Part shown: positions 647-21,429 of the stretch, one piece after another
Layout: each line of letters begins with the position of its first letter
Position numbering within the stretch: position 1 is the first letter of the stretch
Assembly (NCBI GenBank): GCA_021782205.1
Contig: JAJXVH010000005.1
Span: 6,833 to 70,832 of the forward strand
Origin: a bacterium
Lineage (GTDB): Bacteria; Elusimicrobiota; Elusimicrobia; UBA1565; UBA9628
Direction of reading: 5' to 3'
DNA length: 64,000 nt
Notes under the pieces: generated by a model
Seen by the model: the letters and a program-made list of their open reading frames with translations, nothing else
Databases searched by the model: none
Told to the model about the DNA's origin: nothing
Program-made: the position numbers and the translations under genes

Positions 647-787
647 AGCGCTTCAATTATAGAGACTGCGCGCGCCGCGGCGATGTCGCAATTGTTAAGC
701 CTCGCGCACCTCAGGATAGCCCTGTGGACGCGTCCGCGTCAAGACGCGCTGGACGTCCGCGGCGCGATTTTGCTATAAACTCACCCA

Positions 788-861
788 GGACGATTAGCTC
801 AACTGGTTAGAGCAGGACCCTCTTAAGGTCAAGGTTCTCGGTTCGAGTCCGAGATCGTCCA
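788..861 (+). tRNA. tRNA-Lys (anticodon CTT)
   Basis: 74-nt cloverleaf: acceptor GGACGAT/ATCGTCC, D-arm GCTC-AACTGGTTA-GAGC, anticodon loop CTCTTAA (U33, CTT, A37), T-arm CTCGG-TTCGAGT-CCGAG, discriminator A; no encoded CCA. Confidence 0.85.
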
Positions 862-913
862 AAACTTTGCAGCCGTGCGAGGACCGAAGACGCTTCGGTC
901 CTCTTTTGATTTC

Positions 914-994
914 GGGCGGGTGGCGGAACGGCAGACGCGCGCGGCTTAGGACCGCGTGCCGAAAGGCGTGGGGGTTCGAGTCCCCCCCCGCCCA
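914..994 (+). tRNA. tRNA-Leu (anticodon TAG), long variable arm
   Basis: 81 nt: acceptor GGGCGGG/CCCGCCC, anticodon stem CGCGG/CCGCG with loop CTTAGGA, 13-nt variable arm TGCCGAAAGGCGT, T-arm GGGGG-TTCGAGT-CCCCC. Confidence 0.85.
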
Positions 995-1017
995 CGCGAC
1001 TCTCCGTGGAGGCATCA

Positions 1018-2286: not shown

Positions 2287-2309
2287 CCTTTCGTCCAACG
2301 GTCTTAACT

Positions 2310-2351
2310 GCGGCGTCGGCCTTAGGGCCGGCGCCGCGTTGCTTTATTTCG
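2310..2351 (+). terminator. rho-independent terminator after tig
   Basis: GCGGCGTCGGCC-TTAG-GGCCGGCGCCGC hairpin followed by GTTGCTTTATTTCG. Confidence 0.6.
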
Positions 2352-2418
2352 ATGTTCCATCAAGACGCGAAGCCGAAGCGTCCTTGAGGGTCGGCTTCCA
2401 AAGAGCTAGACTCTGACC

Positions 2419-3027
2419 ATGCCCAACCTGATTCCCACCGTGCTCGAGCGCTGGTCCGGCGGTTCCGCGACGTCCTACGACATCTTCTCTCGCCTTCTTC
2501 AGGAGCGCATCATCTTCGTCGGCGGCGAGGACGGCGCGGTGACCACGGACTCCGCCAATAATCTGATTTCACAGATACTGTATCTGGACTCCCAGGACTC
2601 TCAAAAAGACATCAACCTCTACATCAATTCCCCGGGCGGCATGGTCTCGGCGGGCCTGGCGGTCTACGACACGATGCAGTTCGTGCGCGCGCCGATTTCC
2701 ACGCTGTGCATGGGGATGGCGATGAGCTTCGGCGCGGTGCTGCTGGCCGCGGGGGCCAAGGGCAAGCGCTTCATCCTGCCGCACGCGCGCGTGATGATCC
2801 ACCAGCCTCTGATCCGCGGCGGCATGGGCGGGCAGGAGAGCGACGTCCGCATCGAGGGCAAGGAAATGGCGGCCACGCGACGGCGTTTGTCGGAAATCTT
2901 GGCGCGGCATTGCGGCAAGCCTTACGAGGACGTCGATCGCGATGTGGAGCGAAACTTCTACCTGTCGGCCGAGGAAGCCGTGGCCTACGGCCTGGCCGAC
3001 AAGGTCGTGCCGGCGGCCAAGCCGTGA
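2419..3027 (+). CDS. clpP: ATP-dependent Clp protease proteolytic subunit
   Basis: 202 aa with the typical ClpP sequence (..[21 protein letters not shown].. [22 protein letters not shown]). Confidence 0.95.
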
Positions 3028-5459
3028 GCGAAAAGAAAAATCCCGCGCCGCGTTCCGTTCGTCCCACGCGCCTGCCCCTGCTGGCCGTGCGCGACGTGGT
3101 GATGTTTCCGCACATGGTCCTGCCACTGTCGGTGGGACGGCCGAAGTCGGTGAAGGCCATCGAGGCGGCGATGGCCAAGCACGGCAAACTGCTGGTCGTC
3201 GCGGCGCAGAAGGACGTGGCCGTCGAGGATCCCAAGGTCGACGACGTCTACAAGACCGGCGTCCTGGTGGAGGTCGTCCAGTACCTGCGCATGCCCGACG
3301 GAACGCTCAAGGTCTTCCTGCAGGGCCACGCGCGCGCCGCGCTGGAGACGATGGAGTTCTCGCAGGACGACGGGCACTGGAACGCGAAGCTGGCCTATCC
3401 GGAGCCCGCCGCGCGCAACACGGCGGAGCTCAAGGCGCTGATGCGCCACGCCGTCGAGGCCGGCGAGGAGCACGCCAAGCTCTCGCGGCGCTCGCCCGGC
3501 GAGCTGGCCGCCCTGCCGCAGATCGAGGATCCTTCTGAATTCGCCGATTCCGCCGCCGCGGCGCTGGTCGCCAAGCCCGCGGACCGGCAGACGCTTTTGG
3601 AGACGCTCGACGTCAAAGAGCGCCTGGAAAAGCTCGTCGTGATGATCAAGGCCGACGTCGAGATCCTCAACCTCGACCGCAAGATCCACACGCGCGTCAA
3701 GACTCAGATCGAGAAGACGCAGAAGGAGTACTACCTCAACGAGCAGATGAAGGCGATCCAGAAGGAACTGCGCCAGAAGGACGACTTCGCGCAGGAAATC
3801 GAGGATCTCAAGAAGGCGGTGAAGGACGCGAAGATGCCGGAGGTCGCGGAAACCGCCGCGCAGAAGGAGATCGGCCGCCTGGAGAAGATGGCGCCGTTTT
3901 CCCCCGAGTCCACGGTCAGCCGCACCTATCTGGACTGGATGGTCCACCTGCCCTGGTCGAAGCGCACGCGCGACACCCTCGACCTGCCCAAGGCGCAGAA
4001 GATCCTCGACGAGGACCACGCGGGGCTTCCGAAGGTCAAGGAGCGCGTGCTCGAATACCTGGCGGTGACCAAGCTCACCAAAGGCCTGCGCGGCCCGATC
4101 CTGTGCTTCGCCGGTCCTCCCGGCGTGGGCAAGACGTCCTTGGCCAAGTCCATCGCCCGCTCGCTTGGGCGCAAGTTCGTGCGCATGTCCCTGGGCGGCG
4201 TGCGCGACGAAGCCGAGATCCGCGGCCACCGCCGCACCTACATCGGCAGCCTGCCCGGACGCCTCATCCAGCATCTGCGCAAGGCCGGCTCTAAAAATCC
4301 GCTGATCCTGCTCGACGAGATCGACAAGATGGGCATGGACTGGCGCGGCGATCCGTCGGCGGCGCTGCTCGAGGTCCTGGACCCGGAGCAGAACGCCACC
4401 TTCCTGGACCACTACCTGGACGTGGAGTTCGATCTCTCCGAGGTGATGTTCGTCTGCACGGCCAACGAACTGGCGAGCATTCCGGTCACCCTGCGCGACC
4501 GCTTGGAGGTCCTGAATTTCTCCGGCTACACGTTGTCGGAGAAAGTCGCCATCGCGCGTACGCATCTTCTGCCCAAGGCGCTGGAGACCCACGGTCTTAA
4601 GCCCGAGCAGATGACCCTGACCGACGCGGCGCTGGAGCGCGTCGTGGAGGAATACACCCGCGAGTCCGGCGTGCGCCACCTGGAGCGCGAAATCTCCTCG
4701 CTGTGCCGCAAGGCCGCGCGGCGCGCGCTGTCTGAGAAACCCGAGACCTCGTCCTGGGACGCGGCCGACGTGCCCCGGCTGCTGGGACCGGCGAAATTTC
4801 CGCGCGAGAAGAACTCGCACAACGGCGTGGGCGTGTCCACGGGCCTGGCCTGGAGCGAGGTCGGCGGTTCGACCATGGCCGTCGAGGCCGTGGCGCTGCC
4901 GGGCCGCGGCCTGGTCAAGATCACCGGCCGCCTGGGCGAGGTCATGCAGGAATCGGCGCAGGCCGCGCTCTCCCACGTGCGCTCCATCGCCGAGGAGCTG
5001 GGCGTGGCTCCGGAGTTCTTCCGGCGCCACGACTTCCACCTGCACTTCCCCGAAGGGGCCGTGCCCAAGGACGGCCCCTCGGCCGGCATCGCCATCGCCA
5101 CCGCGCTGGCCAGCCTGGCCTCGCTGCGGCCGGTCGTGTCCGACCTGGCGATGACCGGCGAGATCACCTTGCGCGGCCGCGTCCTGCCCATCGGCGGCTT
5201 GAAGGAAAAGCTTCTGGCCGCCGACCGGGAGGGCCTGAAGACCGTGCTGATCCCGGAGGCGAACGTCAAGGACTTGGAAGACGTCCCGGCCGAGGTCCGC
5301 GCGCGCCTCAAGATCGTGCCGGTCAAGCACTTCCGCGAGGTCGCCGCGCTGGCGCTGGGCGCCGCCGAGGCCGCACCGCAGACGAAGACGAAGCCCGCGT
5401 GGCGAGCCCCCGGCTCCGCCACGTCCGACCAGCCGCCCCACCGCGGCGGCGTCGCTTGA
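3024..5459 (+). CDS. lon: ATP-dependent protease Lon
   Basis: GTG at 3024 overlaps the clpP stop (GTGA). It has a Lon N-domain, AAA+ Walker [10 protein letters not shown] and a C-terminal S16 protease with PKDGPSAG. The ORF-track 5' extension back to 2706 overlaps clpP and is spurious. Confidence 0.95.
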
Positions 5460-5479
5460 GGAGCGCGCACGAGGTTCCC

Positions 5480-6571
5480 ATGACCCACCGCAACATCATG
5501 CTCACCCCCGGCCCCACCCCCCTGCCGCCGCAGGTGCTGGAGGCCATGGCCCGCCCTCTCATCCATCACCGCACCGAGGAGTTCGGCGCGCTGTTCGCCT
5601 CCGTGCTCGAAGACATGAAGTGGGTCTACCGCACGAAGGGCACGGTGCTGATGATGACGTGCTCGGGCACGGGGGCGATGGAATCGGCCGTGACCAATCT
5701 GCTTTCCCCCGGAGATGCGTCGCTGATCTGCACCACCGGAGCGTTCGGCGACCGCTTTGTCGCCATTCAGAAGGCGTTCGGACTTTCTCCCGAGGTTCTC
5801 CCCTTCGAGTGGGGCCGCGCCGTGGACGCCGACGCCCTGCGCGCCAAGCTCAAGACGCTCAAAGGCCTGAAGGCCGTTTTTCTTCAGCACACCGACACCT
5901 CGACGGGCATCGTCAACGACCTGAAGGCTCTGGCCCGCGTGGTGCGCGAGGAATCGGGCGCCCTGGTCGTCGTCGACTCGGTGTCCGGCCTGGCCTGCGA
6001 GCCGCTGGAAATGGACGCCTGGGGCCTGGACGCGGTGGTGACCGGCTCCCAAAAGGGCTTGATGAACGCGCCGGGGCTGGGCTTCGTCGCTCTTTCCGAG
6101 CGCGCCGAGAATGCCGTCGCCGCGGCGCGTCTGCCGCGCTTCAACTTCGACTATCGTCTCATAAAAGCGTCCCTCGCGCAGCGCGAAACGCCCTGGACGC
6201 CCGCGATCTCGATCGTCGTCGGTCAAGCCGCGGCGCTGAAGCTCCTGCGCGCCGAAGGCCTGGACGCGGTCTGGACGCGGCACTTCGCGCTGGCCGACCA
6301 CGCGCGCGCTCGGCTCAAGGACGCGCTGGGCCTGCCGTTCTTCGCCAAAAATCCGGCCAATATCCTCACCGGCGTGATTCTGCCCGAAGGCGTGGACGGC
6401 AATAAGCTTCTCGCCGACATCCTGCGCGAGGAAGGCATCTCCATCGCGGGCGGGCAGATGCATCTCAAAGGGAAAATATTCCGGCTGGCGCACATGGCCT
6501 ACATCTCCAAGTCCGACGTGGACGCCGGCGTCGAGGCTCTCGCGCGGCGGCTGGCGAAGGCGAAGGTTTGA
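5480..6571 (+). CDS. class V aminotransferase (serine-pyruvate / phosphoserine aminotransferase family)
   Basis: ATG at 5480 with GAGG 6-9 nt upstream. N-terminal MLTPGPTPLPPQVLEAM..IHHRTEEF and a PLP-fold pattern; the ORF-track start at 5399 is an upstream extension. Confidence 0.8.
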   Translation: MTHRNIMLTPGPTPLPPQVLEAMARPLIHHRTEEFGALFASVLEDMKWVYRTKGTVLMMTCSGTGAMESAVTNLLSPGDASLICTTGAFGDRFVAIQKAFGLSPEVLPFEWGRAVDADALRAKLKTLKGLKAVFLQHTDTSTGIVNDLKALARVVREESGALVVVDSVSGLACEPLEMDAWGLDAVVTGSQKGLMNAPGLGFVALSERAENAVAAARLPRFNFDYRLIKASLAQRETPWTPAISIVVGQAAALKLLRAEGLDAVWTRHFALADHARARLKDALGLPFFAKNPANILTGVILPEGVDGNKLLADILREEGISIAGGQMHLKGKIFRLAHMAYISKSDVDAGVEALARRLAKAKV

Positions 6572-7278
6572 TGGGTTTCCGTCCCCCGACATCGCCGCCC
6601 GTTCGTTTCGCCGCCGCGCTCTGCGCGGGTGTTCTTTTCATTGCGGCATCGGCCCATGCCGCGCAATCGCGCACGATCATGCCTCAGGAACTGCAAGATC
6701 GGCTCTATTCGATTTATAACTCAACAAGCGCCGCGCCGTCCATGAAAATCCGCGCCTGGAGAGAATTGCGCGCCGTTATCCACCCGCTACCGCCTCCCAA
6801 CTTCACCTGGCCCGCCGCCTCCTCGACCGCGTCGGCGTTGATCTCGGCCGCGAAAGGCGGTCGCGTCTTCCGCGCAGACAACGCCGAAATATCAATTGCT
6901 GCGGGTGCTTTGCTTACAGACCAGACCGTCACGATCTCGACGCCCGCGGCGCGCGGCGCGGACGAGGAGTCCGCCATGGTCCGAGCGGCGTCGGCGGCGG
7001 GCCTGCTCGTCGCGTCCGACGGCGTCGAGTTCGGTCCAACGGGAACGCGTCTGCGCCGCGCGACCGCCGTGGTCGTCCCTTATTCGGCGGCGCTCGCCCG
7101 AGCCGCCGGCTTAAGGGACTTCGATCTGGCGATCTACCTCTGGAACCCATCCGCACGTCAATGGGTGAGGCTACCGTCCCTGATCGACACCGCCAATCAT
7201 ACGGCCACGACCCGGATTTTCGCCTTCTCGCTTTGCAAGATCTTCGGCGCGCCGCGGGTATCGTCAGGAGTCCGATAA
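6571..7278 (+). CDS. secreted hypothetical protein (signal peptide)
   Basis: TGATG overlap with the aminotransferase stop; N-terminal hydrophobic signal ..FAAALCAGVLFIAASAHAAQS; no recognisable domain. Confidence 0.5.
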   Translation: MGFRPPTSPPVRFAAALCAGVLFIAASAHAAQSRTIMPQELQDRLYSIYNSTSAAPSMKIRAWRELRAVIHPLPPPNFTWPAASSTASALISAAKGGRVFRADNAEISIAAGALLTDQTVTISTPAARGADEESAMVRAASAAGLLVASDGVEFGPTGTRLRRATAVVVPYSAALARAAGLRDFDLAIYLWNPSARQWVRLPSLIDTANHTATTRIFAFSLCKIFGAPRVSSGVR

Positions 7279-7279
7279 A

Positions 7280-9400
7280 ATGCGAGGCAGCGGAAGCCGC
7301 CGCCGCTGGTTGCTTGCGGTGGTGCTCGTCGCCCTCGCATCCGCCGCGCGCGCCGACCCGCTTCCGCAACAGGTTTACTATTCGACCTTCACGACATACG
7401 CGGGTTTGCCGTTCTCGATGACGCCCGATCCTGCGGGAAACGCCTACATACTATCGGATATCGGCGTCTCCGAGGTGTCGCCGCAGGGTGCGATTTCAAG
7501 CCTCGCCGGAGCCGTCAGCGGCGTTGCGTATTTCCCCATCGCACTCGCGGTCAATCCGGCGAGCGAAGCGGTGTACTACACTTGGCAGGATTGGAACTTT
7601 CTCGGCAACAACGTCACGGGTAATTACATTGTGCGGGTGGGTAGCGGCACCGTGCAGGTGCCGACGACGGCATACGCGTCCTATGTGAGCGGCGTGGCCG
7701 TGGATTCGACCACGGGGCACGTTTATGTCGTCGAGACGTATTCCAACGACGCCGCGCAATACACCAACGGCGTGCAGGTGCTTGAGTACGACTCGGCACT
7801 GAACGGTCCACTGCACAGCGCGGACATCGATCCGGGAGCGCCGGTCGACATCCAGGCGTTCGGTCAATCGGCGGTGACGGACGGTTCAGGAAACATCTAC
7901 GTAGTCGCGACCCAGTGCGGCAGCCCGCTGATGAGTCCGCCATGCGCCCTGCTGGCGGTGAAGTTCTCGCCGCACTTGGCGGGAAAGCTCTACAGCAGCC
8001 TGGTCAGTATCGGCGTTCCAGGAAATTTTCCGTTCAGCGAGGACATCGCAGTGAACCCGGCGGGCGAGGCGTTCATAGCCGGGGTCACGCCGTTGTCGGG
8101 GGTGGGGGCCAACGGCTCCAACTACTACACTGGAGGCGTGCTGGTTAAACTGAACCCGGCGGGAGCGACCGACTTCGTGAGGAACACGCTCGGGCTCGCC
8201 TCCGGCACGCAGAACAGCGACATCTACGCAGTAGCGGCGGACGCGGACGGCGACGGTTACGTGTTGGCGAACTTGTATAGCAGTAATTATCCATACGAGT
8301 CCATTGCCCATGCGGTCAAATACAGCACGGGTGGAGCCGTCGCGTGGAACTTCCCCGTTTTCAATGGGCTAGCGGGCGGGGAAGGCACGGCGATCGCGAC
8401 GGACGCGCAGGGCAACGTCTACATGGCTGGCATCAGCCAGGGTAGCGCGACTTACTTTGACGCAGCCACCATCGCGGCGAAGTACGGCCAGGTGAGTCAG
8501 AAGTTGCTGCGCATCTCGACGGGCGCTTTGACCGTCTCGCCGGCGCCGCCGACCTATCCCGGAGTCCAGTTGTCCGGCAACCCGTCGACCACGGTGGAGA
8601 TCGACCTGCTCGACGCGACCGGCGCGCCCCTGCCGCAGCAGGCCGCGGTCGACCTCGCCGTGACCGAGGCGCCGCTCTCCGGCGGGCACGCCCACGACAA
8701 CGCCCGCCCGGTCGGCACGCTCTCCTGGCAAGGCGGCCCGGCGTCAAGCTCCATGACCGCGACGACGAACGCGAGCGGACAATTGTTCGTCGTTTACGCC
8801 TCGACGTCGTTCGGCGGCCAGGAGACCATCACCGCGTCGCTCGCCGACGATGCGAGCGTTTCGACGTCGGCGGTCGTGAACGTTGGCGTGGTGGATTCCG
8901 ACGGACTGGGGCTTGTCGATCTTTCGACCTTGCCTATTGCGTCTTTTGCGCGCTTGACAGGAAACACGCTGCCGACCACCTACGCGGGCTGCCCGGGATA
9001 CTCCACGCAAAATCACCCTTCGAACCATTGGGCGACCGGCGACACGATAGCACGGGCGCTGTCGGCGATCGTCGAGTTCTACAATGAGACGGGAATCCGG
9101 CTCGGCATCAACGACATGGGCCTGCCCAACGGAGGGATATTCGACATCTGCGGGGACTGGCAGTTGACTGCTTTCATAAACAAGAGGAACAAAGTGAGCA
9201 TAAAGGGTCATCAATGTCATCGTGGCGGGAACAGTATTGATATCGACAGTAACGATGTCAACGGCATAGCCCTTACAAAACATCAGCTCCAAGTCTTGGA
9301 TGATGCGATGTCGAAATTCGGCGGGCAAAAGGTCAACGAAGGGCCAATCCACTATCAGTTTCCTGGCCCCGAGATTTGCTTCAGGAAGGGAGGACAGTGA
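7280..9400 (+). CDS. large secreted multi-domain protein: signal peptide, beta-propeller (SBBP-like) repeats, Ig-like domain, variable Cys/His-containing C-terminal domain (polymorphic-toxin-like)
   Basis: Signal peptide MRGSGSRRRWLLAVVLVALASAARA is followed by repeated G(N/D)(I/V)Y(V/M)xA..S motifs. The Ig-like stretch (8537-8746) is duplicated downstream. The last about 210 aa (DICGDW, GHQCHRGGNSIDIDSND motifs) are encoded by visibly AT-richer DNA. Confidence 0.7.
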   Translation: MRGSGSRRRWLLAVVLVALASAARADPLPQQVYYSTFTTYAGLPFSMTPDPAGNAYILSDIGVSEVSPQGAISSLAGAVSGVAYFPIALAVNPASEAVYYTWQDWNFLGNNVTGNYIVRVGSGTVQVPTTAYASYVSGVAVDSTTGHVYVVETYSNDAAQYTNGVQVLEYDSALNGPLHSADIDPGAPVDIQAFGQSAVTDGSGNIYVVATQCGSPLMSPPCALLAVKFSPHLAGKLYSSLVSIGVPGNFPFSEDIAVNPAGEAFIAGVTPLSGVGANGSNYYTGGVLVKLNPAGATDFVRNTLGLASGTQNSDIYAVAADADGDGYVLANLYSSNYPYESIAHAVKYSTGGAVAWNFPVFNGLAGGEGTAIATDAQGNVYMAGISQGSATYFDAATIAAKYGQVSQKLLRISTGALTVSPAPPTYPGVQLSGNPSTTVEIDLLDATGAPLPQQAAVDLAVTEAPLSGGHAHDNARPVGTLSWQGGPASSSMTATTNASGQLFVVYASTSFGGQETITASLADDASVSTSAVVNVGVVDSDGLGLVDLSTLPIASFARLTGNTLPTTYAGCPGYSTQNHPSNHWATGDTIARALSAIVEFYNETGIRLGINDMGLPNGGIFDICGDWQLTAFINKRNKVSIKGHQCHRGGNSIDIDSNDVNGIALTKHQLQVLDDAMSKFGGQKVNEGPIHYQFPGPEICFRKGGQ
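8537..8746. repeat. 210-bp direct repeat, copy 1 (inside the 7280..9400 gene; encodes ..PPTYPGVQLSGNPSTTVEIDLLDATGAPLPQQAAVDLAVTEAPLSGGHAHDN..TLSWQG..)
   Basis: Aligns base-for-base with 10407..10616 with about 13 mismatches and no indels. Confidence 0.85.
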
Positions 9401-9402
9401 CT

Positions 9403-10335
9403 ATGTTCCTGCATCTCGCAGTTGGTGCGTGCTGTTTTTTTCCCGGACTATTGCATGCGCAAACGCTCGCCATGCCCGCGGGAATTCCTCTTACAACCGC
9501 AACTGTCAGCGTCGCGGTGAGTTATGATCCGACGAACTATATTTTCATCTACTCCTACTCCGTGTCCAACTCCAAACAGAGTGCGGGAAAAATCGATGCT
9601 CTCAATATTGATATATCGACCGCGCCTAATGGCGCGAGCTTGGGTTCAAACGATCTTCTCAACGGTGCAACGGGATACTCTGGTTTCGGTTCGGCAACAA
9701 GCTTAGCCGATTCCGTCGGAAATGCGACTATACCAGTCGGTTTTAAATCACAGCCGGCCGGCTGGAGTTCGGGGCCAACGGCGCAATTTACTGCAAGCTG
9801 GTATGGCCCCCTTCCTCCGGGCGACTATATCGCTCCGGGAGAATCTCTTGGTGCATTTGTTCTAACCAGCCATGGCCTGCCAGGCATCCGTCATTTTGCA
9901 GTTCGGCCAGCATACAATTCCGCCGATTTTCTGCCGGGGATCGACGACGACTCCAGCGAGGCCACGCAAATTTCTGATCTCGACAACGAAATACAGCGCG
10001 TGATCCAATCTCAGGGATACACGATCGGCCCCGTTCAGCCGCCGAGCCTCACGGATAGCGGCCAGCTCCTGGATTTCATGGCCGCGCTCAAGCACCAGGC
10101 CGCCTCCCTGGGCTGGATATACGGCCCGGGCTCGGACGGGATCGTGCGAAGCCTGGACGCGAAGCTGACCGCCGCGAAGGCGTCGGCCGCCTCCGGCGAC
10201 GGCAAGGCCGCGATCAATCAGCTTAATGCCTTCATCAATGAGCTTCAGGCTCAGCGCGGCAAGACGATCAGCGACAACGCGTTCTATCTGCTCCAGCCCA
10301 ACGCGCAGTTCATCATCTCAAAACTGGGCTCATGA
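9403..10335 (+). CDS. secreted/periplasmic hypothetical protein; candidate immunity partner of the upstream C-terminal domain
   Basis: ATG at 9403 starts 3 nt after the upstream stop. Signal peptide MFLHLAVGACCFFPGLLHAQT. The gene is low G+C relative to its surroundings (especially the 5' half) and matches no known family. Confidence 0.55.
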   Translation: MFLHLAVGACCFFPGLLHAQTLAMPAGIPLTTATVSVAVSYDPTNYIFIYSYSVSNSKQSAGKIDALNIDISTAPNGASLGSNDLLNGATGYSGFGSATSLADSVGNATIPVGFKSQPAGWSSGPTAQFTASWYGPLPPGDYIAPGESLGAFVLTSHGLPGIRHFAVRPAYNSADFLPGIDDDSSEATQISDLDNEIQRVIQSQGYTIGPVQPPSLTDSGQLLDFMAALKHQAASLGWIYGPGSDGIVRSLDAKLTAAKASAASGDGKAAINQLNAFINELQAQRGKTISDNAFYLLQPNAQFIISKLGS

Positions 10336-10721
10336 CTTCGGTCGTGGCCAACCACCATCAAGAATCGAATCCGGGAGTGAAGATCGCCCTGAGCCCGGCG
10401 AGCGCCTCGCTGGCGCCGCCGACCTATCCCGGAATCCAGTTGTCCGGCAACCCATCGGCCACGGTGGAGATCGACCTGCTCGACGCGACCGGCGCGCCCC
10501 TGCCGCAGCAGGCCGCAGTCGACCTCGCCGTGGCCGAGGCACCGTTCTCAGGCGGGCACGCCCACGACAACGTCTGCCCGGTCGGCACTCTCTCCTGGCA
10601 AGGCGCCCCGGCGTCCTTTCGACTTTGCCCATCTCGTCTATTGCGTGCGTCCAGGAAAAAGATAAAACGGAATATACCCGGGACGCGAGGTCCGAATCTA
10701 ACATATGATTTCCAATTGTAA
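10332..10721 (+). pseudogene. orphan fragment of a paralog of the 7280..9400 gene (contains repeat copy 2, then terminates after a short unrelated tail)
   Basis: The 129-aa ORF carries ..APPTYPGIQLSGNPSATVEIDLLDATGAPLPQQAAVDLAVAEAPFSGGHAHDN..TLSWQG.. with no signal peptide and no N-terminal propeller region. Confidence 0.6.
10407..10616. repeat. 210-bp direct repeat, copy 2
   Basis: See copy 1 at 8537..8746. Confidence 0.85.
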
Positions 10722-10770
10722 CGACATACTGCTGATTTCATCAGGCGCGAGCCGGAGGCTAAAAATCGAC

Positions 10771-12366
10771 ATGAGCAAGCTCAAAGTCCTGGTCACCGAC
10801 AAGATCGACCCCGAGGGCCTCAAGCCCCTGCAGTCGCATCCCGACATCGAACTGCGCTACGAGATCGCGCCGAAGCCCGAGGCGCTGGAGAAAGCCCTGG
10901 TCGGCGTCGGCGTCTGGCTGGTGCGCTCCGAAACGAAGGTCACGGCGGACTGGATCGCCAAGGCGCTGGACCTGCGCCTGATCGGGCGGGCGGGCGTGGG
11001 CGTCGACAACATCGACCTGGCCGCCGCCACGCGCCGCGGCGTGGCCGTCATCAACGCGCCGGCGGCCAACACCTTGGCCGCCGCGGAGCACGCGCTGGCG
11101 CTGATGCTGGCCGTCGCGCGCCACGTGCCGCAGGCGGACGCCTCGCTGAAGGCCGGCAAGTGGGAGCGCGGCAAGTTCATGGGCGTGGAGCTGTTCGGCA
11201 AGACCCTGGGCGTCGTCGGCCTGGGCCGCATCGGCCGCGAGGTCGCCAAGCGCGCGCAGTCCTTCGGCATGAAGATCGTCGGCTTCGACCCGTTCGTGTC
11301 CGAGGCGCAGGCGCGCGAGCTGGGCATTACGCCCGCGGCCTTGCCGGAACTGCTGGCCCAGTCGGATTTCGTCACCTTGCACGTGCCGGGCGGCGACAAG
11401 ACCAAGCACCTGATCTCCGCCGAGGCGCTGAAGACGGTCAAGAAAGGCCTGCGCCTGATCAACTGCGCGCGCGGCGAGCTGATCGACGAGGCCGCTCTTG
11501 TCGAGGCGCTCAAGGACGGCCGCGTGGCCGCCGCGGGCTTGGACGTGTTCAGCGCCGAGCCTCTGCCCGCCGACAGCGTCCTGCGCTCGGCGCCGAACTT
11601 GGTTCTCACCCCCCACCTGGGAGCGTCCACGTCCGAGGCGCAGAGCCGCGTCGCCGTGGAGCTGGCGCAGGCGGTCGTGGACTTCCATGAGAAGGGCCTG
11701 GCGCCCAACGCGGTGAACCTGCCCGGCTTCGACGCGCGCACGCTTTCGGAACTGGGCGAATGGCTGGGCCTGGCCGAGGCCCTGGGCCGCTTCCTGGGAC
11801 AAACGCTCGAAGGCGGCGTGCGCGAGTTCGTCGTCCAGTTCGAGGGCGAGTTCAAGGGCTCGGAGCGCCGTCCCCTGCTGATCAGCGCCTTGAAAGGCCT
11901 GCTGACGCCGATCCTGGGCCCCGCGGTGAGCTGGATCTCGGCACCGTCCGTGGCCGCGGACCGGGGCATCAAGATCTCGGAGTCGTCGGATCCCAAGTGC
12001 TCCGAGGGCGTGCGCCGCCTGCTCACCGTCGCGGCGGTGACCGACGCGGGCACCGCGACCGCCGCCGGCGCCGTGCTGGCTCCCGGCGAACCGCGCATCC
12101 TCCGCCTGGGCGCCTTGCGCGTCGACGTGCGTCCCGCCGGCAAGATGATCGTGCTGACCAACACCGACGCGCCGGGCGTGATCGGCCGCGTGGGCACTTT
12201 GCTGGGCCGCGCCGGCGTCAACATCGCCGACATGCGCGTGGGCCGACGCTCGCCGCACGGCGAGGCGGTCATGGTGCTCAACGTCGACGAGGCCGTCTCG
12301 CCCCAGGTCCGCGCGGAACTGGAGCGCCTGGACGGCGTGCGTCGCGCGCATTGGGTGGAGTTGTGA
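10771..12366 (+). CDS. serA: D-3-phosphoglycerate dehydrogenase with C-terminal ACT domain
   Basis: ATG at 10771 with GGAGG 13-17 nt upstream. 2-hydroxyacid dehydrogenase NAD motif GVVGLGRIGREVA, catalytic region ..LTPHLGASTSEAQ, and an ACT-like C-terminus. Confidence 0.9.
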   Translation: MSKLKVLVTDKIDPEGLKPLQSHPDIELRYEIAPKPEALEKALVGVGVWLVRSETKVTADWIAKALDLRLIGRAGVGVDNIDLAAATRRGVAVINAPAANTLAAAEHALALMLAVARHVPQADASLKAGKWERGKFMGVELFGKTLGVVGLGRIGREVAKRAQSFGMKIVGFDPFVSEAQARELGITPAALPELLAQSDFVTLHVPGGDKTKHLISAEALKTVKKGLRLINCARGELIDEAALVEALKDGRVAAAGLDVFSAEPLPADSVLRSAPNLVLTPHLGASTSEAQSRVAVELAQAVVDFHEKGLAPNAVNLPGFDARTLSELGEWLGLAEALGRFLGQTLEGGVREFVVQFEGEFKGSERRPLLISALKGLLTPILGPAVSWISAPSVAADRGIKISESSDPKCSEGVRRLLTVAAVTDAGTATAAGAVLAPGEPRILRLGALRVDVRPAGKMIVLTNTDAPGVIGRVGTLLGRAGVNIADMRVGRRSPHGEAVMVLNVDEAVSPQVRAELERLDGVRRAHWVEL

Positions 12367-12376
12367 CCGCGGCACG

Positions 12377-13147
12377 ATGACTCCGGAGAAATGCCCTAAC
12401 TGCGGCACGAAGCTCAAGCCCGAAGCGCCCTCTTGTCCGAACTGCCCGATGTCTTTTCCGGAGGGCGATTCCGCCTCCGCGGTGCATCCGCTCAAGCAGA
12501 CTCGGCTCTACCGCGCCCTCCCACCGATATTGCTCTTCGCCGGTATCGGCTATTTGATCTGGTCTATGGCGATGGGACTGTTCCACCTCGGCGAGGAGAG
12601 CGCGAACTACGACGCGGTGGCCCCTAACGCAGCGGCCTCGGGATCTCCGGCGTCATCGTCGACGACAATGCAGGCGGCGGCGTCGCAGCCGGCGCGCCGT
12701 GAGGTCGTTTACATTTCTCATGAAGACGCGGCCCCGCCGCGCCGTGCAATGAGTTCGGCTCGCGCGGCCGATCAGCAAGTCCGCTCCTGGCGCCTGCGCG
12801 GCGCGGTCTATGATCTGATCACGCTCGCGCCCCTGCCGGATTGCGCCATCATCTTGGTCGATGAGCGCGCCAACCGGCGCATCGAGACGCGCACCGATGC
12901 TTCCGGCCGCTACCGCATGATCGTTCCGTCTTTGCCCGACGGAGGCTATGCCGTCGGCATCCGCAAGGACGGCTACGCGCCTGCCTATCTAGATTCGGCG
13001 CAAGACGGTGTTCCGGCCATGAGCCCCGTCCAGCGTGCCGCCCGGGCCCGCGACCTGGCCAAGACGTTCACCTCTCCACCCGTGACGCTTCAAACCGCGA
13101 GCGCCGTTCCGCTGCTCACGGATTTCTACCTCGCGCCTCGGCGCTGA
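12377..13147 (+). CDS. zinc-ribbon / transmembrane / carboxypeptidase-regulatory-like (CarD-like) domain protein
   Basis: N-terminal CPNCG..CPNC ribbon, one hydrophobic helix LPPILLFAGIGYLIWSMAMGLF, then a C-terminal ..VDERANRRIETRTDASGRYRM.. pattern. Same architecture as the 38622..40337 gene. Confidence 0.6.
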   Translation: MTPEKCPNCGTKLKPEAPSCPNCPMSFPEGDSASAVHPLKQTRLYRALPPILLFAGIGYLIWSMAMGLFHLGEESANYDAVAPNAAASGSPASSSTTMQAAASQPARREVVYISHEDAAPPRRAMSSARAADQQVRSWRLRGAVYDLITLAPLPDCAIILVDERANRRIETRTDASGRYRMIVPSLPDGGYAVGIRKDGYAPAYLDSAQDGVPAMSPVQRAARARDLAKTFTSPPVTLQTASAVPLLTDFYLAPRR

Positions 13148-13171
13148 GCCTCGCGCCGCCGTCGACGCGTC

Positions 13172-14281
13172 TTAGACGAGCGTGGCCAGTTCGACGGCCT
13201 TCTCGCCCACCGACTGAGCGACGGCCGCGTAGGTGACCTTGCCGCGATAGACGTTGACGCCCTTGCGCAGGGACTCGTCGCGGCGCACCGCCTCTTCCAA
13301 ACCATGGCGGGCGATGTCGCGCGCGTATTTGAGCGTCACGTTGGTCAGCGCGTAGGTGGAGGTGTGGCTGACCGCGCCCGGGATGTTGGGCACGGCGTAG
13401 TGCAGGACGCCGTGCTTGACCAGCACGGGCTTGTCGTGGCTGGTGACCTCCGCGGTCTCGACACAGCCGCCCTGGTCGACGGCCACGTCCACGATCACCG
13501 AGCCCGGCCGCATTTGCTTGACCATCTCCTCGGTGACCAGATGCGGCGCCTTGGCACCCGGGATCAACACCGCGCCGATGACCAGGTCCGCGCGCAGGAC
13601 CGCGTTCGTGATGTTCTCCTCATGGCTCATCAGCGTGGAGACCGAGTTGCCGAACACGTCGTCGAGGTAGGCCAGGCGCTGGGCGGAGACGTCGAGTATG
13701 TTCACGCGCGCGCCCATGCCGATGGCGATCTTGGCCGCGTTGATGCCCACGACGCCGCCGCCGATGATCGTGACCACGCCGCGCGCCACGCCCGGCACGC
13801 CGCCAAGCAGGACGCCGCGTCCGCCGTGGTGCTTCTCCAAAAATTGCGCGCCGAGCTGGACCGACATCTTGCCGGCGACCTCGCTCATCGGCGTCAGCAG
13901 GGGCAAAGCGCCCTCGCGCGTCTGGATGGTCTCGTAGGCCACGGCCTTGACCTTGGCCTTCATCAGCGCCTTGGTCAGCGCCGGGGCGGGCGCCAGGTGC
14001 AGGTAGGTATAAAGGATTTGGTCCTCGCGGAACAGCGGATACTCCTCTTCGAGCGGCTCCTTGACCTTGACGATCATGTCCGCGTCCGCGAAGAGGCGCT
14101 TCTTGTCGACGATGGCGGCGCCGGCGGCCTTGTATTCGTCGTCGGTGATGCCCGAACCAACGCCCGCGGACTTCTCGATTAGGACCTTGTGGCCGTCCTT
14201 GACCAGCGCGCGCACGCCGCCGGGCACCAGGCCCACGCGGTGCTCGCGGTTCTTGATTTCCTTCGGCACTCCAATTTTCAT
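13172..14281 (-). CDS. ald: alanine dehydrogenase
   Basis: 369 aa: [18 protein letters not shown].., Rossmann [18 protein letters not shown]. Confidence 0.9.
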
Positions 14282-14330
14282 AGCGGTGTTCTCCTCAATG
14301 TTCGCATCTTAGCAAAGTCCCGGCCGGGCG

Positions 14331-16766
14331 CTACGCCGGGCCGCCGTCCAGCGTTCGGCGCAGCGCGCGCGCCAGGGCCAAGGGCTCCGCCGGTTTGCCC
14401 AGAAACGGCGCGCCGCGGCGCCGGATCTCCTGCGTCAGTTCCAGCGGCGCGAAGCCGCTCAGGAAAAGCACCTTGAGCTCCGGACGTCGAGCCTTCATGC
14501 GGTCGTAGGTTTCCAAGCCGTCCATTCCCGGCATCACCAGGTCCAAGACGACTGCGCGCACCTCCGGTTCGGCGTCCAGCACGCGCACGCCCTCTTCGCC
14601 GCCCGAAGCGCAGAGCGTCGCGTAGCCGAAGCCGCGCAGGAGTCGTTCCAGCGTGGATCGAACCATCGGCTCGTCGTCGACGATCAAGACTTTTTCGGCG
14701 CCGCGTGGCGGCGCCGCGTCGGCGACAGCCGCGGGCGCGGCTGGCGAAGGGCACGCGGGCCAATACACGCTGACCAAGGCGCCTTTCTCGGGGGCCGTCG
14801 AGATGTCCAGCCCTCCGCCGTGCTGGCGCACTATCCCGGAAACCACGGCCAGCCCCAGACCCGTGCCCTCGCCGAACGGCTTGGTCGTGAAGAAGGGTTC
14901 GAGCAGTCGCGCGCGTTCGGGCACAGGAACGCCAGGCCCGTCATCGGCGACTTCCAAGACCCAGTAGCGTCCCGGGGGCACGGGCAGCAGCGCGTCGCCG
15001 CGCCCGCGCTCCAGCGCCTCCTCGCGCAGACTCACGCGGACCGCACCCTTTCCGGAGACGGCGTCACGGGCGTTGAAGCACAGATTGAGCAGAACCTGTT
15101 CGGCTTGACCCGCATCGGCCATGACCCAGGCCGGACCGCCGCCGGTCCGCAGTTCCAGCGCGACGCGGCGACCCAACGCCGCTCCCAGCATCTTGCTCAT
15201 GCCGGCGACCAGTGCGTCGAGGTCCGTCGGCCGCCGTAGCGCCTCGCGCCGACGGCTGTAGGTCAGAAGTTGCGAGACGAGATTCCCGGCCCGCCGTAGA
15301 GAGGTGATGATGCCGTCCACGTCCGCGGAGCTGGGGTGCTGAGCGCCGAGCGATGTCAGCACGATCTGCGCCAATCCCGAGGCTGCCATCAGGATATTGT
15401 TGAACTCGTGCGCCACGCCCCCCGCCAGGCGGCCGACCGACTCCATGCGTTGGGCGCGCATCACGCGCCGCTCCTGCTCGCGCAGTTCGGTCGTCTTGAA
15501 TTCGACCAGCGCGCTGATGCGCTCCGCGCGGCCGTATAAAGTCAGCGCGATCCAGCTCGCCAGATACATCAATATCAGCACGCGTCCCAGCACCAGCCAG
15601 CGCTGCAAATCGTCCCCGGAATATTGAGGGCCCGGACCGGGCCGTGCCGCGAGGAGCCAGCGTCGTCCGGCGGCCTCCACGCTGCGCGCGGAGCCCGCGG
15701 TATCGGCGCCGTCCTTGTTTGTTGCGGGCGAAACGAGAAACTCCACCGAGGTGTCGGACCCAGACAGGCCGCGCGCCGCCTGGTCGACGTCGAACTCGCC
15801 TTCCACCGTTCCCGAGGGTCCGAAAGATCCGAACGGCCGTGCTTCGGCCCGGAGGAGCGCTTCACCGGAGCGGTGGGACGCGTCGGCGGGCTCCCGATAG
15901 AGCGCCGCTTCCGACGAGGGCGGCCGCCATGCCAAAGACAGAAGCTCCGGATGTGTCCGCAAAACGGCGCGTGCATAAGCGGAAAATTCGTTCCGATCCA
16001 CGCGTGGAAAGCTTTCAAAGAGCGCAGCCGCGCCGCGTACCGCGTTAAAGCTTGAGTCGATCTGCACCCGCAGCGTCAGAGCCGCGTCATCGAGCCGGCG
16101 CTCTGCGCGCGCGTGCGCCCGGACCTGTTCGCTTCTCAACGTGTAGTCGTGGATGGCGAGCACCAGGATCAAGGTGGCGGACATGGTCGCGGTGACGGTC
16201 GCCTTGCCGCGACGGGATCCCGCGAGTCCGCGTCCGGACCATAAAAGAATCAACGGCGCGGCAAAGACCACGCCGATGGCGTCGCCGACCCACCACGTGG
16301 CCCACGTGTAGAGCGACTGGGAGGCGGTGATTCTTCCAAAGAGAAGCAGGCCGGCCGTCCCCCAAACGGAGGCGACCAGCCCGGCCAGCGGCCCGGCGGC
16401 CATCATGAAACGGAATAGAAGCTTCTCCTCGGACAGCGGTTCGCGCCCGCCGGTCGCGCGGCGGGCCAGAGTCGCGGCGGTCAGAGCCTGGGCGGCCGCG
16501 CCCGCGCCGATCCACGCGGCCAAGAACGTCGGCGCGGCTCCGGTCGCGCCGCGCAGCCAGGCGCCCGCCGCGTTGGCGGCCAGCGAGCCGAGCAGGACGC
16601 CGGGCCACAACTCCGCGCCCCACAACCACAAGGCGGCTACGGCGATGCCCGCCGACGGCCAGGCGATCGCCGCGTAGCCGGGCGAGATGGCGAAGGCCAG
16701 GGCCGCGCCGCCTGCCGCGAAATAAGCCAGCGCCAGAATCAGAGCGCGGCGGCCACGCGAGCTCAT
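14331..16766 (-). CDS. hybrid sensor histidine kinase (MASE1-like membrane sensor, CHASE-like segment, HisKA, HATPase_c, C-terminal receiver)
   Basis: Internal ATG at 16766..16764 begins MSSRGRRALILALAYFAAGGAALAF with multiple TM helices. H-box GVAHEFNNIL, G-boxes DDGPGV / GTGLGLAVV, and a C-terminal REC (LIVDDEP..VVLDLVMPGMDG..KVLFLSGF). The 270 aa upstream in the 14331..17576 track ORF overlap the PIG-L gene out of frame and are rejected. Confidence 0.85.
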   Translation of the reverse strand: MSSRGRRALILALAYFAAGGAALAFAISPGYAAIAWPSAGIAVAALWLWGAELWPGVLLGSLAANAAGAWLRGATGAAPTFLAAWIGAGAAAQALTAATLARRATGGREPLSEEKLLFRFMMAAGPLAGLVASVWGTAGLLLFGRITASQSLYTWATWWVGDAIGVVFAAPLILLWSGRGLAGSRRGKATVTATMSATLILVLAIHDYTLRSEQVRAHARAERRLDDAALTLRVQIDSSFNAVRGAAALFESFPRVDRNEFSAYARAVLRTHPELLSLAWRPPSSEAALYREPADASHRSGEALLRAEARPFGSFGPSGTVEGEFDVDQAARGLSGSDTSVEFLVSPATNKDGADTAGSARSVEAAGRRWLLAARPGPGPQYSGDDLQRWLVLGRVLILMYLASWIALTLYGRAERISALVEFKTTELREQERRVMRAQRMESVGRLAGGVAHEFNNILMAASGLAQIVLTSLGAQHPSSADVDGIITSLRRAGNLVSQLLTYSRRREALRRPTDLDALVAGMSKMLGAALGRRVALELRTGGGPAWVMADAGQAEQVLLNLCFNARDAVSGKGAVRVSLREEALERGRGDALLPVPPGRYWVLEVADDGPGVPVPERARLLEPFFTTKPFGEGTGLGLAVVSGIVRQHGGGLDISTAPEKGALVSVYWPACPSPAAPAAVADAAPPRGAEKVLIVDDEPMVRSTLERLLRGFGYATLCASGGEEGVRVLDAEPEVRAVVLDLVMPGMDGLETYDRMKARRPELKVLFLSGFAPLELTQEIRRRGAPFLGKPAEPLALARALRRTLDGGPA

Positions 16767-18443: not shown

Positions 18444-18461
18444 AGCGTTCTAGACGCGGAA

Positions 18462-21349: not shown

Positions 21350-21429
21350 TGCGACTCGGGCGCTTACAGAAAAGGGCGTTGTCCCAATAAATTTCCGGGA
21401 CTTGTCCTCATGCTTTTCTTGTTTTTGAT

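Follow-up and report, generated by a model that had tools for sequence, protein, structure and literature searches.

A cassette-exchange locus for an exported LAS-type peptidase and its exported partner, a candidate toxin-immunity system

In the window (the whole 64,000-nt stretch of DNA analyzed), which comes from an uncultured member of the Elusimicrobiota, a gene for a large, apparently exported protein is followed by a second gene for an exported protein and by a repeated piece of the first. This arrangement raises the question of whether the locus exchanges toxin domains together with their immunity genes. The preliminary description proposed an architecture of this type, which proved largely right, and details that proved wrong. 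The genes concerned are:

6568..7278, forward strand: gene for an exported ZU5-like protein (start placed at 6742 or 6571 by gene callers)
7280..9400, forward strand: main gene, 706 aa, an ORF ending 2 nt upstream of the partner gene
8501..8899, forward strand: Ig-like (invasin/intimin-type) domain with the family-invariant SGGHxHD motif
8900..9397, forward strand: LAS-fold zinc peptidase domain (MepA/VanX/Hedgehog-N-like)
9403..10335, forward strand: partner gene, 310 aa

The main protein, found exactly on 11 contigs, comprises a signal peptide (aa 1–25), an SBBP-like beta-propeller body (~aa 26–405), a Big_1-like Ig domain (~aa 408–540), and the peptidase domain (~aa 541–706). Read by eye, the N-termini of the main protein (...ASAARA before DP) and of the partner (...LLHA before QT) are plausible Sec signal peptides. 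The earlier picture of a Sec-exported protein with a beta-propeller and an Ig-like region is thus retained; the SBBP match is weak (NF047494, E = 1e-7), and Pfam SBBP matches occur in relatives. For the upstream protein, the Pfam ZU5 match is sub-threshold (E 0.044) and the profile comparison with the ZO-1 ZU5 domain reaches E 0.85 at best, while a relative in locus L019 has a ZU5 match at E 0.0023 and a T9SS-type C-terminal sorting domain. ZU5-like homologs adjoin the peptidase-partner pair in L019, L023/L029, L028, L036, and L058; in P0002, such a homolog and the cassette form a fusion. The ZU5-like gene is a recurrent neighbor of the cassette.

The C-terminal domain of the main protein is a LAS-fold zinc peptidase with the motifs HPSNHW, INDMGLPxGGIFD, GHxCHRGGNSIDID (H-x6-D), and EGPIH. 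Its relatives are the penicillin-insensitive murein endopeptidase MepA (MEROPS M74; PDB 1TZP/1U10) and the LAS group of VanX, VanY, lysostaphin-type enzymes, and Hedgehog-N. The metal motif common with MepA, xNDMSLxxGGxFD...GHxxHRxGxSVDI, aligns to IGDMGMPAGGRFN...GHASHQTGLDVDI. Identity to MepA is only 18%, and in contrast to MepA the domain forms the C-terminus of large proteins with several domains, where an Ig domain bearing the invariant SGGHxHD always comes before it. The main protein of the window has no Pfam match, and Peptidase_M74 is reached by only 2 of 81 relatives (E ~1e-4). Taken together, the domain can be predicted with good reason to be an active LAS-family metallopeptidase related to MepA. 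Given this relation, the domain probably acts on the peptide moiety of peptidoglycan, and the cell-wall target suggested earlier is plausible. The preliminary description had instead considered a papain- or NlpC/P60-like cysteine hydrolase using the Cys/His motifs, which is very improbable. Four cysteines are indeed conserved among close relatives, but across the wider family invariance holds for the His/Asp/Glu metal and catalytic residues and not for these cysteines. This identity was rejected on that invariance, on the LAS fold, and on the lack of any Pfam or NCBIfam match to papain or NlpC/P60 families. For cysteines of an exported protein, disulfide formation is a likelier role than catalysis.

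Comparison of the window (allele A) with the near-identical strain L006 (allele B) delimits the variable part of the locus:

5480..6571, forward strand: class-V aminotransferase gene (left flank), identical in alleles A and B
8813..8825, forward strand: GGQE codons, the 5' boundary of the cassette; 8825 is the last base common to both alleles
8826..10335, forward strand: variable cassette (allele A), with the last Ig strands, the LAS peptidase domain, and the partner gene
10771..12366, forward strand: serA, D-3-phosphoglycerate dehydrogenase (right flank), protein 100% identical in alleles A and B

Nucleotide identity is ~100% over 2749–8825, 53–80% across the C-terminal domain and the greater part of the partner gene, 81–89% in the last 300 nt (3' end) of the partner gene, and 99.85% from 10768 on (serA onward). 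The main proteins differ by one substitution in aa 1–515 and are ~70% identical from aa 516; the partner proteins are 68% identical. Values of dS are ~1–2.4 in the cassette versus 0.005–0.007 in the flanks, a contrast also found in the sister species. Recombination has replaced the 3' end of the main gene jointly with most, if not all, of the partner gene, so that genomes that are otherwise clonal carry deeply diverged alleles. The locus is a cassette-exchange locus, in which the Sec-exported main protein and the exported downstream protein form a pair. Consistent with the earlier proposal, the downstream protein is probably exported, as judged from its signal peptide, and co-varies with the C-terminal domain. 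The dN/dS ratio is ~0.1–0.25, indicating old, purified alleles and not ongoing positive selection.

The left crossover lies directly after the conserved GGQE, inside the Ig domain. The first mismatch between the alleles beyond 8423 is at 8826, 80 nt past the repeat that had been taken for the recombination junction. In an orphan module of the sister species, homology begins at the same codon, right after GGQE, and the fusion point in P0002 falls between SGQE and I. The junction is exact and recurrent, with three independent events. The AT-richer DNA reported between the repeats is present as well, with a dip to ~0.51, but it is placed differently. G+C drops from 0.61–0.71 to 0.51–0.56 at ~8950–9850; as it falls only from ~8950, the onset is ~200 nt past the repeat and not at it, and the recovery to 0.60–0.65 lies in the 3' third of the partner gene. 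In alleles A and B, as well as in relatives, cassette G+C is below that of the host, and the cassette occupies different genomic sites across species, once beside integrase and T4SS genes. Both are signs of mobility.

The sister species has three alternative cassettes and a genuine orphan C-terminal-domain/partner module. The order in L049 is body-CT2-I2. In L050 it is body-CT1-I1, a 53-nt spacer, and then the orphan (junction plus CT2)-I2, the junction being a 315-nt repeat of 99.7% identity. L059 has CT3-I3, followed by the same 53-nt spacer and the same orphan as L050. At least three alleles thus exist at one locus, and displaced or duplicated cassette copies stay behind as orphans. Together with the L006 allele, the three cassettes bear out the proposed architecture, in which the body is conserved while the C-terminal domain and the gene after it can be swapped. 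As for the proposed swap of a toxin and immunity pair, both genes take part in the exchange, but the variants are not a set of unrelated toxins: they represent one family and one fold, with every catalytic motif kept. This single fold counts against a toxin reading, as classical polymorphic toxin loci swap unrelated domains.

Downstream of the partner gene, the window contains a repeat and its surroundings:

8530..8745, forward strand: repeat copy 1, within the Ig domain of the main gene
10329..10767, forward strand: 439-bp segment, carried by allele-A strains but missing in the allele-B strain
10332..10721, forward strand: 129-aa ORF over the remnant, a truncated Ig domain ending in unrelated sequence
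10339..10658, forward strand: decayed remnant of a second gene copy, with the linker and first part of the Ig domain at 10339–10615
10400..10615, forward strand: repeat copy 2

The direct repeat, initially placed at 8537–8746 and 10407–10616 with ~94% identity, is real; its exact extent is 216 nt, 93.06% identical, ungapped and in frame in both copies, with similarity breaking off sharply at both ends. The 64-kb window contains no third copy of the repeat. The repeat is the leftover of a second, decayed gene copy and not the exchange junction. The remnant is 82% identical to the sister-species main gene over 278 nt, linker included, and continues, after a 175-nt internal deletion, with 43 nt (10616–10658) matching the start of the peptidase region (8921–8964; score 41 versus a shuffle maximum of 25). 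It holds neither an alternative peptidase nor a partner gene. The 129-aa ORF, previously regarded as a cassette-type orphan remnant, is a piece of this decayed copy; it had no match in a family search and is probably not a functional gene.

Strain mixing in metagenome assembly could in principle generate such a repeat and orphan. The source is a MAG, the short Logan contigs L016 and L018 break inside the repeat (ending at aa 446), and L050 has one scaffold gap with a 127-nt overlap. However, the segment 10329–10770, which spans both unique flanks of repeat copy 2, is 99.8–100% identical across contigs from several samples, MAGs, and assemblers, so the locus is not an assembly artifact. In the sister species, the unique 53-nt spacer that joins partner and orphan sits within a contig, and a second sample shows this joint again, there preceded by another cassette. 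The overall arrangement recurs in many independent assemblies, and an artifact is hardly credible.

Alternatively, the locus may be an ordinary horizontally acquired secreted-hydrolase operon that recombined by chance with a diverged relative, the repeat being a neutral scar of tandem duplication and subsequent deletion. Horizontal transfer is indicated by the low G+C and the lack of synteny between locations, the dN/dS is compatible with this view, the orphan in the window is a non-functional fragment with internal deletions, and GAC microhomology at both ends of the 439-bp segment fits a simple deletion. One-off neutral recombination does not predict the regularity observed, namely the identical junction in independent events in two species, the several alleles at one sister-species locus, and arrays and orphans at many loci. 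This explanation is unlikely.

The partner consists of a signal peptide, an Ig-like beta-sandwich (~aa 33–170), a helical linker, and a C-terminal four-helix bundle (FIMAH, aa 248–305). The S3 partner has the C-terminal half, but not the beta-sandwich, in common with the S1 partner; therefore, the beta-sandwich is the part that co-varies with the peptidase, and specificity would reside there. In an HMM scan of 30 loci (L006 and L019–L048, window left out), the partner gene follows, or is fused to, the peptidase gene in 27; L039 and two contig ends are the exceptions. Starting from the partner, five more loci were reached, and all have the peptidase gene upstream. The pair forms tandem arrays in L019, L025, L031, and L033, and its named hosts, from several phyla, are Elusimicrobiota, Ignavibacteriaceae, Gallionella, Lindowbacteria, Nitrospirae, and Chloroflexota. 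No partner-only islands occur in the few loci examined. No known trafficking domains or secretion-system genes (T5, T6, T7, PAAR, RHS) that would account for delivery to a target cell were found accompanying the family. These absences, the lack of an alternative peptidase or partner gene in the window's own orphan, the generic fold matches of the partner, and dN/dS < 1 count against a toxin reading.

In L044, L045, and L048, the peptidase and the partner beta-sandwich share one ORF, with a relic signal peptide as linker. Such fusions are unexpected for a toxin and its antidote, fit a pro-domain or accessory subunit better, and argue for caution about an immunity role. They are among the features favoring a two-subunit secreted or surface enzyme, in which the beta-sandwich would serve the peptidase as a subunit for substrate binding, anchoring, or activation, or as a pro-domain that can be detached. 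Such an enzyme would remodel the cell's own envelope or degrade extracellular material, its diversity arising from horizontal import and selection on exposed surfaces (e.g., by phages or grazers). Where testable, the partner nearly always adjoins a peptidase gene and was in no case found alone, all variants have one fold, and throughout the family the N-terminal bodies resemble adhesins or carbohydrate-binding proteins (Big_1, fn3, BACON, SBBP). A FIMAH-type bundle also ends a secreted GH92 mannosidase (PMC10167667), and ZU5 domains are also common in polymer-degrading surface proteins (PMC3482391). Nevertheless, this explanation does not account for displaced cassettes kept with an intact partner gene (L050, L059), for at least three deeply diverged alleles in clonal backgrounds in two species, or for the build-up of pairs in tandem arrays. 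It would also be unusual for a subunit to be exported separately and to co-vary, given that binding domains of cell-wall hydrolases are normally fused. A two-subunit enzyme is a possible but doubtful reading.

Among known systems, peptidoglycan-hydrolase effectors that act in the periplasm and have periplasmic immunity proteins include T6SS Tse1/Tsi1, Tae4/Tai4, and Tse3/Tsi3, as well as pesticin/Pim and colicin M/Cmi; their enzymes are NlpC/P60 amidases, muramidases, or phosphatases. The window likewise combines a predicted cell-wall enzyme with an adjacent signal-peptide protein whose place of action would be the periplasm, but the enzyme is a LAS zinc peptidase, no T6SS or colicin-type uptake apparatus is present, and the partner has no sequence or specific fold similarity to those immunity proteins. 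Inh/AprI are periplasmic inhibitors encoded in serralysin-type metalloprotease operons. They also represent an exported inhibitor gene beside an exported metalloprotease gene, shielding the producer's periplasm; however, the folds and families are unrelated, and their operons are neither polymorphic nor accompanied by orphan modules. CdiA-CT/CdiI and Rhs-CT/RhsI share with the locus a conserved body, a variable C-terminal domain, a co-varying gene directly downstream, a short conserved junction motif (VENN or PxxxxDPxGL there versus GGQE here), and strains that have the orphan domain in the main gene (L049 versus L050). They also share promoterless downstream orphan modules with a stretch of homology, which belong to the definition of polymorphic toxins (PMC4436062). 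In contrast, T5SS/T6SS partner genes, RHS/FHA repeats, and PAAR were not found here, export relies on a plain Sec signal peptide, one enzyme fold replaces many unrelated toxins, the junction falls within a folded Ig domain, and the toxin and immunity roles are predicted ones. In MafB/MafI of Neisseria and the T2SS/Sec-dependent class (Zhang et al., 2012), the signal peptide is also the sole recognizable export signal, and orphan modules occur (PMC4436062). The Sec-dependent class is a recognized one, for which beta-propeller repeats and ZU5 processing domains are listed (PMC3482391). The differences are that the DUF1020/MafB N-terminal domain is absent here and that the partner is exported and not cytoplasmic. 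The available portions of Zhang et al. (2012) mention neither MepA, VanY, nor murein; thus, no LAS-type toxin is seen in those portions of the survey.

Overall, an exchanged cassette of an exported peptidase and an exported cognate inhibitor, of the toxin-immunity type, is the reading that we favor, with a probability of roughly 0.55. The partner would bind the peptidase through its N-terminal beta-sandwich and keep the enzyme inactive in the producer's periplasm; as a cognate inhibitor, the partner would correspond to an immunity protein. The peptidase would be deployed against other bacteria, and selection for toxin-immunity specificities missing in neighbors may maintain the allele diversity. 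A toxin-immunity function of the pair is suggested by the pattern of exchange. Joint exchange between otherwise identical strains is the genetic hallmark of toxin-immunity systems in bacteria; the one proposed here would consist of two unannotated protein families.

Between a class-V aminotransferase gene and serA lies a pair of genes, here termed the main and partner genes, followed by a short ORF:

5480-6571, class-V aminotransferase gene, left border of the region
6568-7278, + strand, ORF for a 236-aa protein
7280-9400, + strand, ORF for a 706-aa protein (main gene)
9403-10335, + strand, ORF for a 310-aa protein (partner gene), 2-nt gap after the main gene
10332-10721, + strand, 129-aa ORF
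10771-12366, serA, right border of the region

The preliminary description reported a repeat of ~94% identity in this region (8537-8746 and 10407-10616). This direct repeat is present and comprises 216 nt (8530-8745 and 10400-10615) that are 93% identical, without gaps, in frame, and with sharp edges; no third copy exists within the 64-kb window. AT-richer DNA was also described between the two copies. The G+C content indeed drops from 0.61-0.71 to ~0.51 across ~8950-9850, but it rises again toward the 3' end of the partner gene. Because low G+C is also found in allele B (0.49), which is carried by the near-identical strain L006, and in relatives, the dip characterises the cassette (8826-10335) as such and is not peculiar to allele A of the window. 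Since 11 contigs carry the exact 706-aa protein and the segment 10329-10770 is reproduced at 99.8-100% identity among contigs from several samples, an assembly artefact is scarcely credible as the source of this arrangement. Separately, two Logan short-read contigs (L016 and L018) stop within the 216-nt repeat, at main-gene aa 446, which indicates that the repeat breaks assemblies. In practice, the locus breaks short-read assemblies and may mislead MAG annotation.

The organism is an uncultured member of the Elusimicrobiota, the name that NCBI gives to a protein from the 90%-identity cluster of this SerA. The L006 locus, retrieved by an exact SerA protein look-up, encodes proteins of 702 and 315 aa and lacks the 129-aa ORF. 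Identity between the two strains changes abruptly along the region.

Nucleotide identity of the window to L006
2749-8825: about 100%
8826-10027: 53-80%
10028-10327: 81-89%
10329-10767: missing from L006
10768 onward (6.6 kb): 99.85%

The main proteins differ by one substitution in aa 1-515 and are ~70% identical from aa 516, with all motifs kept, and the partners share 68% amino acid identity. A GAC microhomology borders the 439 nt that allele B lacks. Synonymous divergence is 0.005-0.007 in the flanks versus about 1-2.4 in the cassette (dN/dS about 0.1-0.25), which indicates that the alleles are ancient and were set into a clonal background by recombination. Such recombination may be neutral, although we consider this improbable.

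The left boundary of the exchange is sharply defined. Past 8423, the first difference between alleles A and B is at 8826, the base following the GGQE codons (the joint is GGCGGCCAGGAG followed by ACC versus AAA). In a sister species, the homology of an orphan cassette starts at the same GGQE codon (...GGGGGTG, then ACGATCACC), and in P0002, a protein of the related locus L019, a ZU5-like N-terminus is joined to the cassette at SGQE followed by I. With the boundary at one codon in three independent events, GGQE takes at this locus the part of the VENN motif in CdiA. This junction is within the Ig domain, 80 nt 3' of the repeat, and the repeat itself, proposed earlier as the recombination junction, is therefore rejected in that role.

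The second repeat copy has a different origin. The segment 10339-10615 has 82% identity to the main gene of the sister species, including the linker before the Ig domain, and this linker part has no similarity to the main gene of the window. The 43 nt directly after 10615 correspond to 8921-8964 in the main gene, a skip of 175 nt (score 41, compared with a maximum of 25 in 100 shuffles). The remainder up to serA has no match, including in Rfam, and no convincing promoter or terminator was found in the orphan and serA-leader region. Because the second copy starts upstream of the cassette boundary and has internal deletions, it is best described as the wreck of a second gene copy and not as a cassette-type orphan. 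The 129-aa ORF, previously regarded as an orphan remnant of a cassette, is accordingly rejected as a gene; what occupies the orphan position in the window is a decayed fragment without a peptidase or partner gene. Comparable tandem arrays are present in four related loci (L019, L025, L031, and L033).

A search with P0154, a partner homologue, led to three contigs from the sister species (L049, L050, and L059), in which intact displaced cassettes are found. L049 has the order body-CT2-I2 (C-terminal domain and partner). L050, identical to the MAG contig L022, has body-CT1-I1, a 53-nt spacer, an orphan whose first 315 nt repeat main-gene sequence at 99.7%, and then CT2-I2. The bodies of L049 and L050 are identical in DNA (100%; 99.8% in protein), followed by an abrupt fall to 50-86% nucleotide identity, and their downstream DNA is 99.97% identical. 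In L059, from another sample, the spacer and orphan of L050 recur behind a third cassette (CT3-I3), which independently confirms that the orphan joint is real. Downstream orphan modules that have a stretch of homology in common with the main gene, a feature of polymorphic toxin systems, are clearly present in L050 and L059; in the window, only the decayed fragment is left. Among these alleles, the third partner (L059:346-1269, compared with L050:2500-3435) is a mosaic, with a diverged N-terminal beta-sandwich and a C-terminal ~125 aa equal to that of the S1 partner. This shows that the right-hand crossover can fall within the partner gene and that the part which consistently accompanies the peptidase is the beta-sandwich.

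The main protein begins with a plausible Sec signal peptide, as judged by inspection, and has a weak SBBP beta-propeller signature. For its C-terminal 217 aa, a word-indexed homology search gave no match, and an exhaustive HMMER scan found 501 cluster representatives at E <= 1e-3; the former null result therefore reflects limited sensitivity rather than an absence of relatives. In all 150 listed relatives (of 501), the match is at the protein C-terminus behind bodies of widely varying length. In most of them it extends over the preceding Ig-like domain, so that conservation covers two domains together, as a module of ~296 aa. Direct annotation was uninformative, with no PDB match for the whole main protein, no Pfam match for it even at E = 10 (the M74 family threshold included), and nothing beyond a Big_9 trace (E 0.27) for the isolated domains against Pfam and NCBIfam. 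For both the peptidase and the partner family, the window proteins reach no model in Pfam or NCBIfam.

An alignment of 20 diverse modules was more revealing. Its invariant positions include G-H-x-H in the Ig domain, N-D, G-G, W, H-x-x-H-R-x-G-x-x-x-D, and E-x3-H; among these are H647-x6-D654 and E687-x3-H691 (H240, D247, E280, and H284 in module numbering). The sole PDB match of the 20-module profile is the murein endopeptidase MepA (E 0.39), exactly on the metal-binding motif, and by analogy with MepA, residues of the H647/D654/H691 type are assigned as putative metal ligands. The AlphaFold model built on this alignment is confident (pLDDT 86, pTM 0.83), and both its fold and the conserved putative metal ligands, H-x(3-6)-D and a distal His, are those of LAS metallopeptidases (Hedgehog/DD-peptidase fold: M15, M23, and M74). 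Among 81 full-length relatives, two reach Peptidase_M74 (PF03411; E about 1.6e-4), and other Pfam domains are Big_1, SBBP, fn3, BACON, and similar, with no RHS, PAAR, FHA, or LXG domain. The domain is a family related to but separate from Peptidase M74/MepA, and a predicted cell-wall peptidase activity is its best remaining reading. The papain/NlpC-P60-like hydrolase suggested before can be dismissed with near certainty, given the LAS fold, the lack of any match to that family, and cysteines that are not invariant across relatives. The Ig domain has a loop with an SGGHxHD motif (window 8684-8704; aa 469-475) that is nearly or fully invariant family-wide. This motif may serve as a second metal site or as part of an autoinhibitory loop.

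The partner was correctly described as exported, insofar as its sequence predicts a signal peptide, and it has a C-terminal FIMAH domain. In its model (pLDDT 88), a helical connector joins an Ig-like beta-sandwich to a four-helix bundle. As the fold matches are otherwise to generic bundles and sandwiches, they are uninformative on function, and all 58 partner homologues lack a protein name.

The association of the two genes is widespread. Two collection scans with six close sequences as query, together with exact-protein look-ups, provided 30 loci besides the window (L006 and L019-L048). In 27 of these, HMM matches place the partner immediately after the peptidase gene or in a fusion with it, the exceptions being two contig ends and L039; five further loci found from the partner side all have a peptidase gene upstream. 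Named hosts include Elusimicrobiota, Ignavibacteriaceae, Gallionella, Lindowbacteria, Nitrospirae, and Chloroflexota, and the genomic sites of the pair vary among species. A distant pair (L021, 32% identity; JGI 3300062134, 1-16608) has to one side a type I CRISPR-Cas locus that includes a PemK toxin. To its other side are genes for an integrase, an excisionase-like HTH protein, and conjugation (TrbC/VirB3/VirB4), a setting that suggests carriage on an integrative element. In three loci (L044:3861-6737, L045:2309-5125, and L048:1-2511), the LAS peptidase and the partner beta-sandwich form a single ORF with a linker that resembles a relic signal peptide, and the L044 ORF continues into a DUF4214 domain. 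The peptidase gene at L055:5057-6992 is split into two ORFs, by either a frameshift or an assembly error, and is intact in the otherwise matching L056 and L057. The L019 array (153-5201) contains two pairs in tandem, and its second 'toxin' gene encodes P0002 (416 aa), in which the ZU5-like N-terminus runs straight onto the cassette without the propeller or most of the Ig domain.

Other neighboring genes were also recorded. The gene upstream of the main gene is ZU5-like at sub-threshold similarity (window 6568-7278; L019:5209-6231; L058:3320-4348). An HFS-type motif, which we take to be the ZU5 autocleavage site, closes the domain in most relatives and is AFS in the window copy. The L019 relative has a T9SS-type sorting domain (23 bits, cut-off 27), and a PorV-like gene comes after it. 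Directly past serA, 12377-13147 encodes a 256-aa protein (232 aa by the later start of gene callers) that combines a zinc ribbon at its N-terminus with a CarboxypepD_reg-like domain. A defence-like cluster on the - strand (17781-22776) encodes a Septu PtuB-like HNH nuclease (E 8e-16), an unassigned protein of 211 aa, a double GHKL ATPase of 751 aa (HATPase_c_3 and HATPase_c) with weak type II restriction-enzyme matches, and a protein of 448 aa that weakly matches type II methyltransferase/mad2.

The gene architecture matches that of polymorphic toxin loci as defined previously (PMC4436062; PMC3482391). A variable C-terminus follows a constant N-terminus between strains (window and L006; L049 and L050; L059), the immediately downstream gene co-varies as a conserved pair (2-nt gap, 68% amino acid identity), and GGQE demarcates the two parts. 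The predicted Sec signal and the beta-propeller body fit the 'T2SS/Sec-dependent' class, which is listed with beta-propellers and ZU5 domains (PMC3482391). However, the polymorphic-toxin architecture proposed in the preliminary description holds only in part. In polymorphic toxin systems the alternative C-terminal domains are of unrelated types, whereas here the alleles and all 150 listed relatives share one combined Ig and LAS module with its catalytic residues conserved. The pair also differs from T6SS peptidoglycan effector-immunity pairs, which are linked to T6SS components; VgrG, Hcp, PAAR, and marker domains were absent both from the called neighbors of the listed loci and from the Pfam annotation of 81 family members.

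We favor, with a probability of roughly 55%, a candidate toxin-immunity pair, that is, an effector and its cognate inhibitor. A peptidoglycan peptidase that crosses the periplasm of its producer would need an exported inhibitor, a role that the partner suits. It is likewise consistent with immunity that displaced cassettes are kept and that their partner genes are intact. Several points weigh against such a pair: a single fold is swapped, peptidase-partner fusions occur, no partner-only islands, which immunity genes would be expected to form, were seen in the loci examined, and no known delivery apparatus was found at the listed loci. Alternatively, the partner may be an accessory subunit of the peptidase, which seems rather unlikely, though less so than neutral recombination.

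More tentatively, and with the odds somewhat against it, the effector-inhibitor pairs may represent a class of polymorphic antibacterial toxins that is Sec-exported, spans phyla, and has so far gone unrecognised. Its toxic part would be a LAS peptidoglycan peptidase of the MepA type, in every case placed behind an Ig domain that bears SGGHxHD, a second conserved histidine motif, and the GGQE recombination junction, and each toxin would be neutralised by a new exported immunity family (beta-sandwich and four-helix bundle). Delivery would be outside the known T5, T6, and T7 routes, perhaps with autoprocessing by ZU5 and a route of T9SS-like or outer-membrane type, and the fused forms would be self-inhibited zymogens. 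No LAS-type toxin was found in the text of the 2012 polymorphic-toxin survey (PMC3482391) under 'MepA', 'VanY', or 'murein'.

Natural cognate and non-cognate pairs are at hand (alleles A and B in the species of the window, S1-S3 in its sister), which opens specificity to direct testing in E. coli. If the accessory-subunit explanation is true, the locus would still represent an unannotated, widespread two-gene module (501 representative peptidase-module clusters) with unusual population genetics. If the toxin-immunity reading is true, LAS zinc peptidases would be a new enzyme class among polymorphic toxins, together with a new immunity family, with cassette exchange at a junction within a folded domain and without a known dedicated secretion system. 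Such systems would then extend to Elusimicrobiota and other little-studied environmental phyla.
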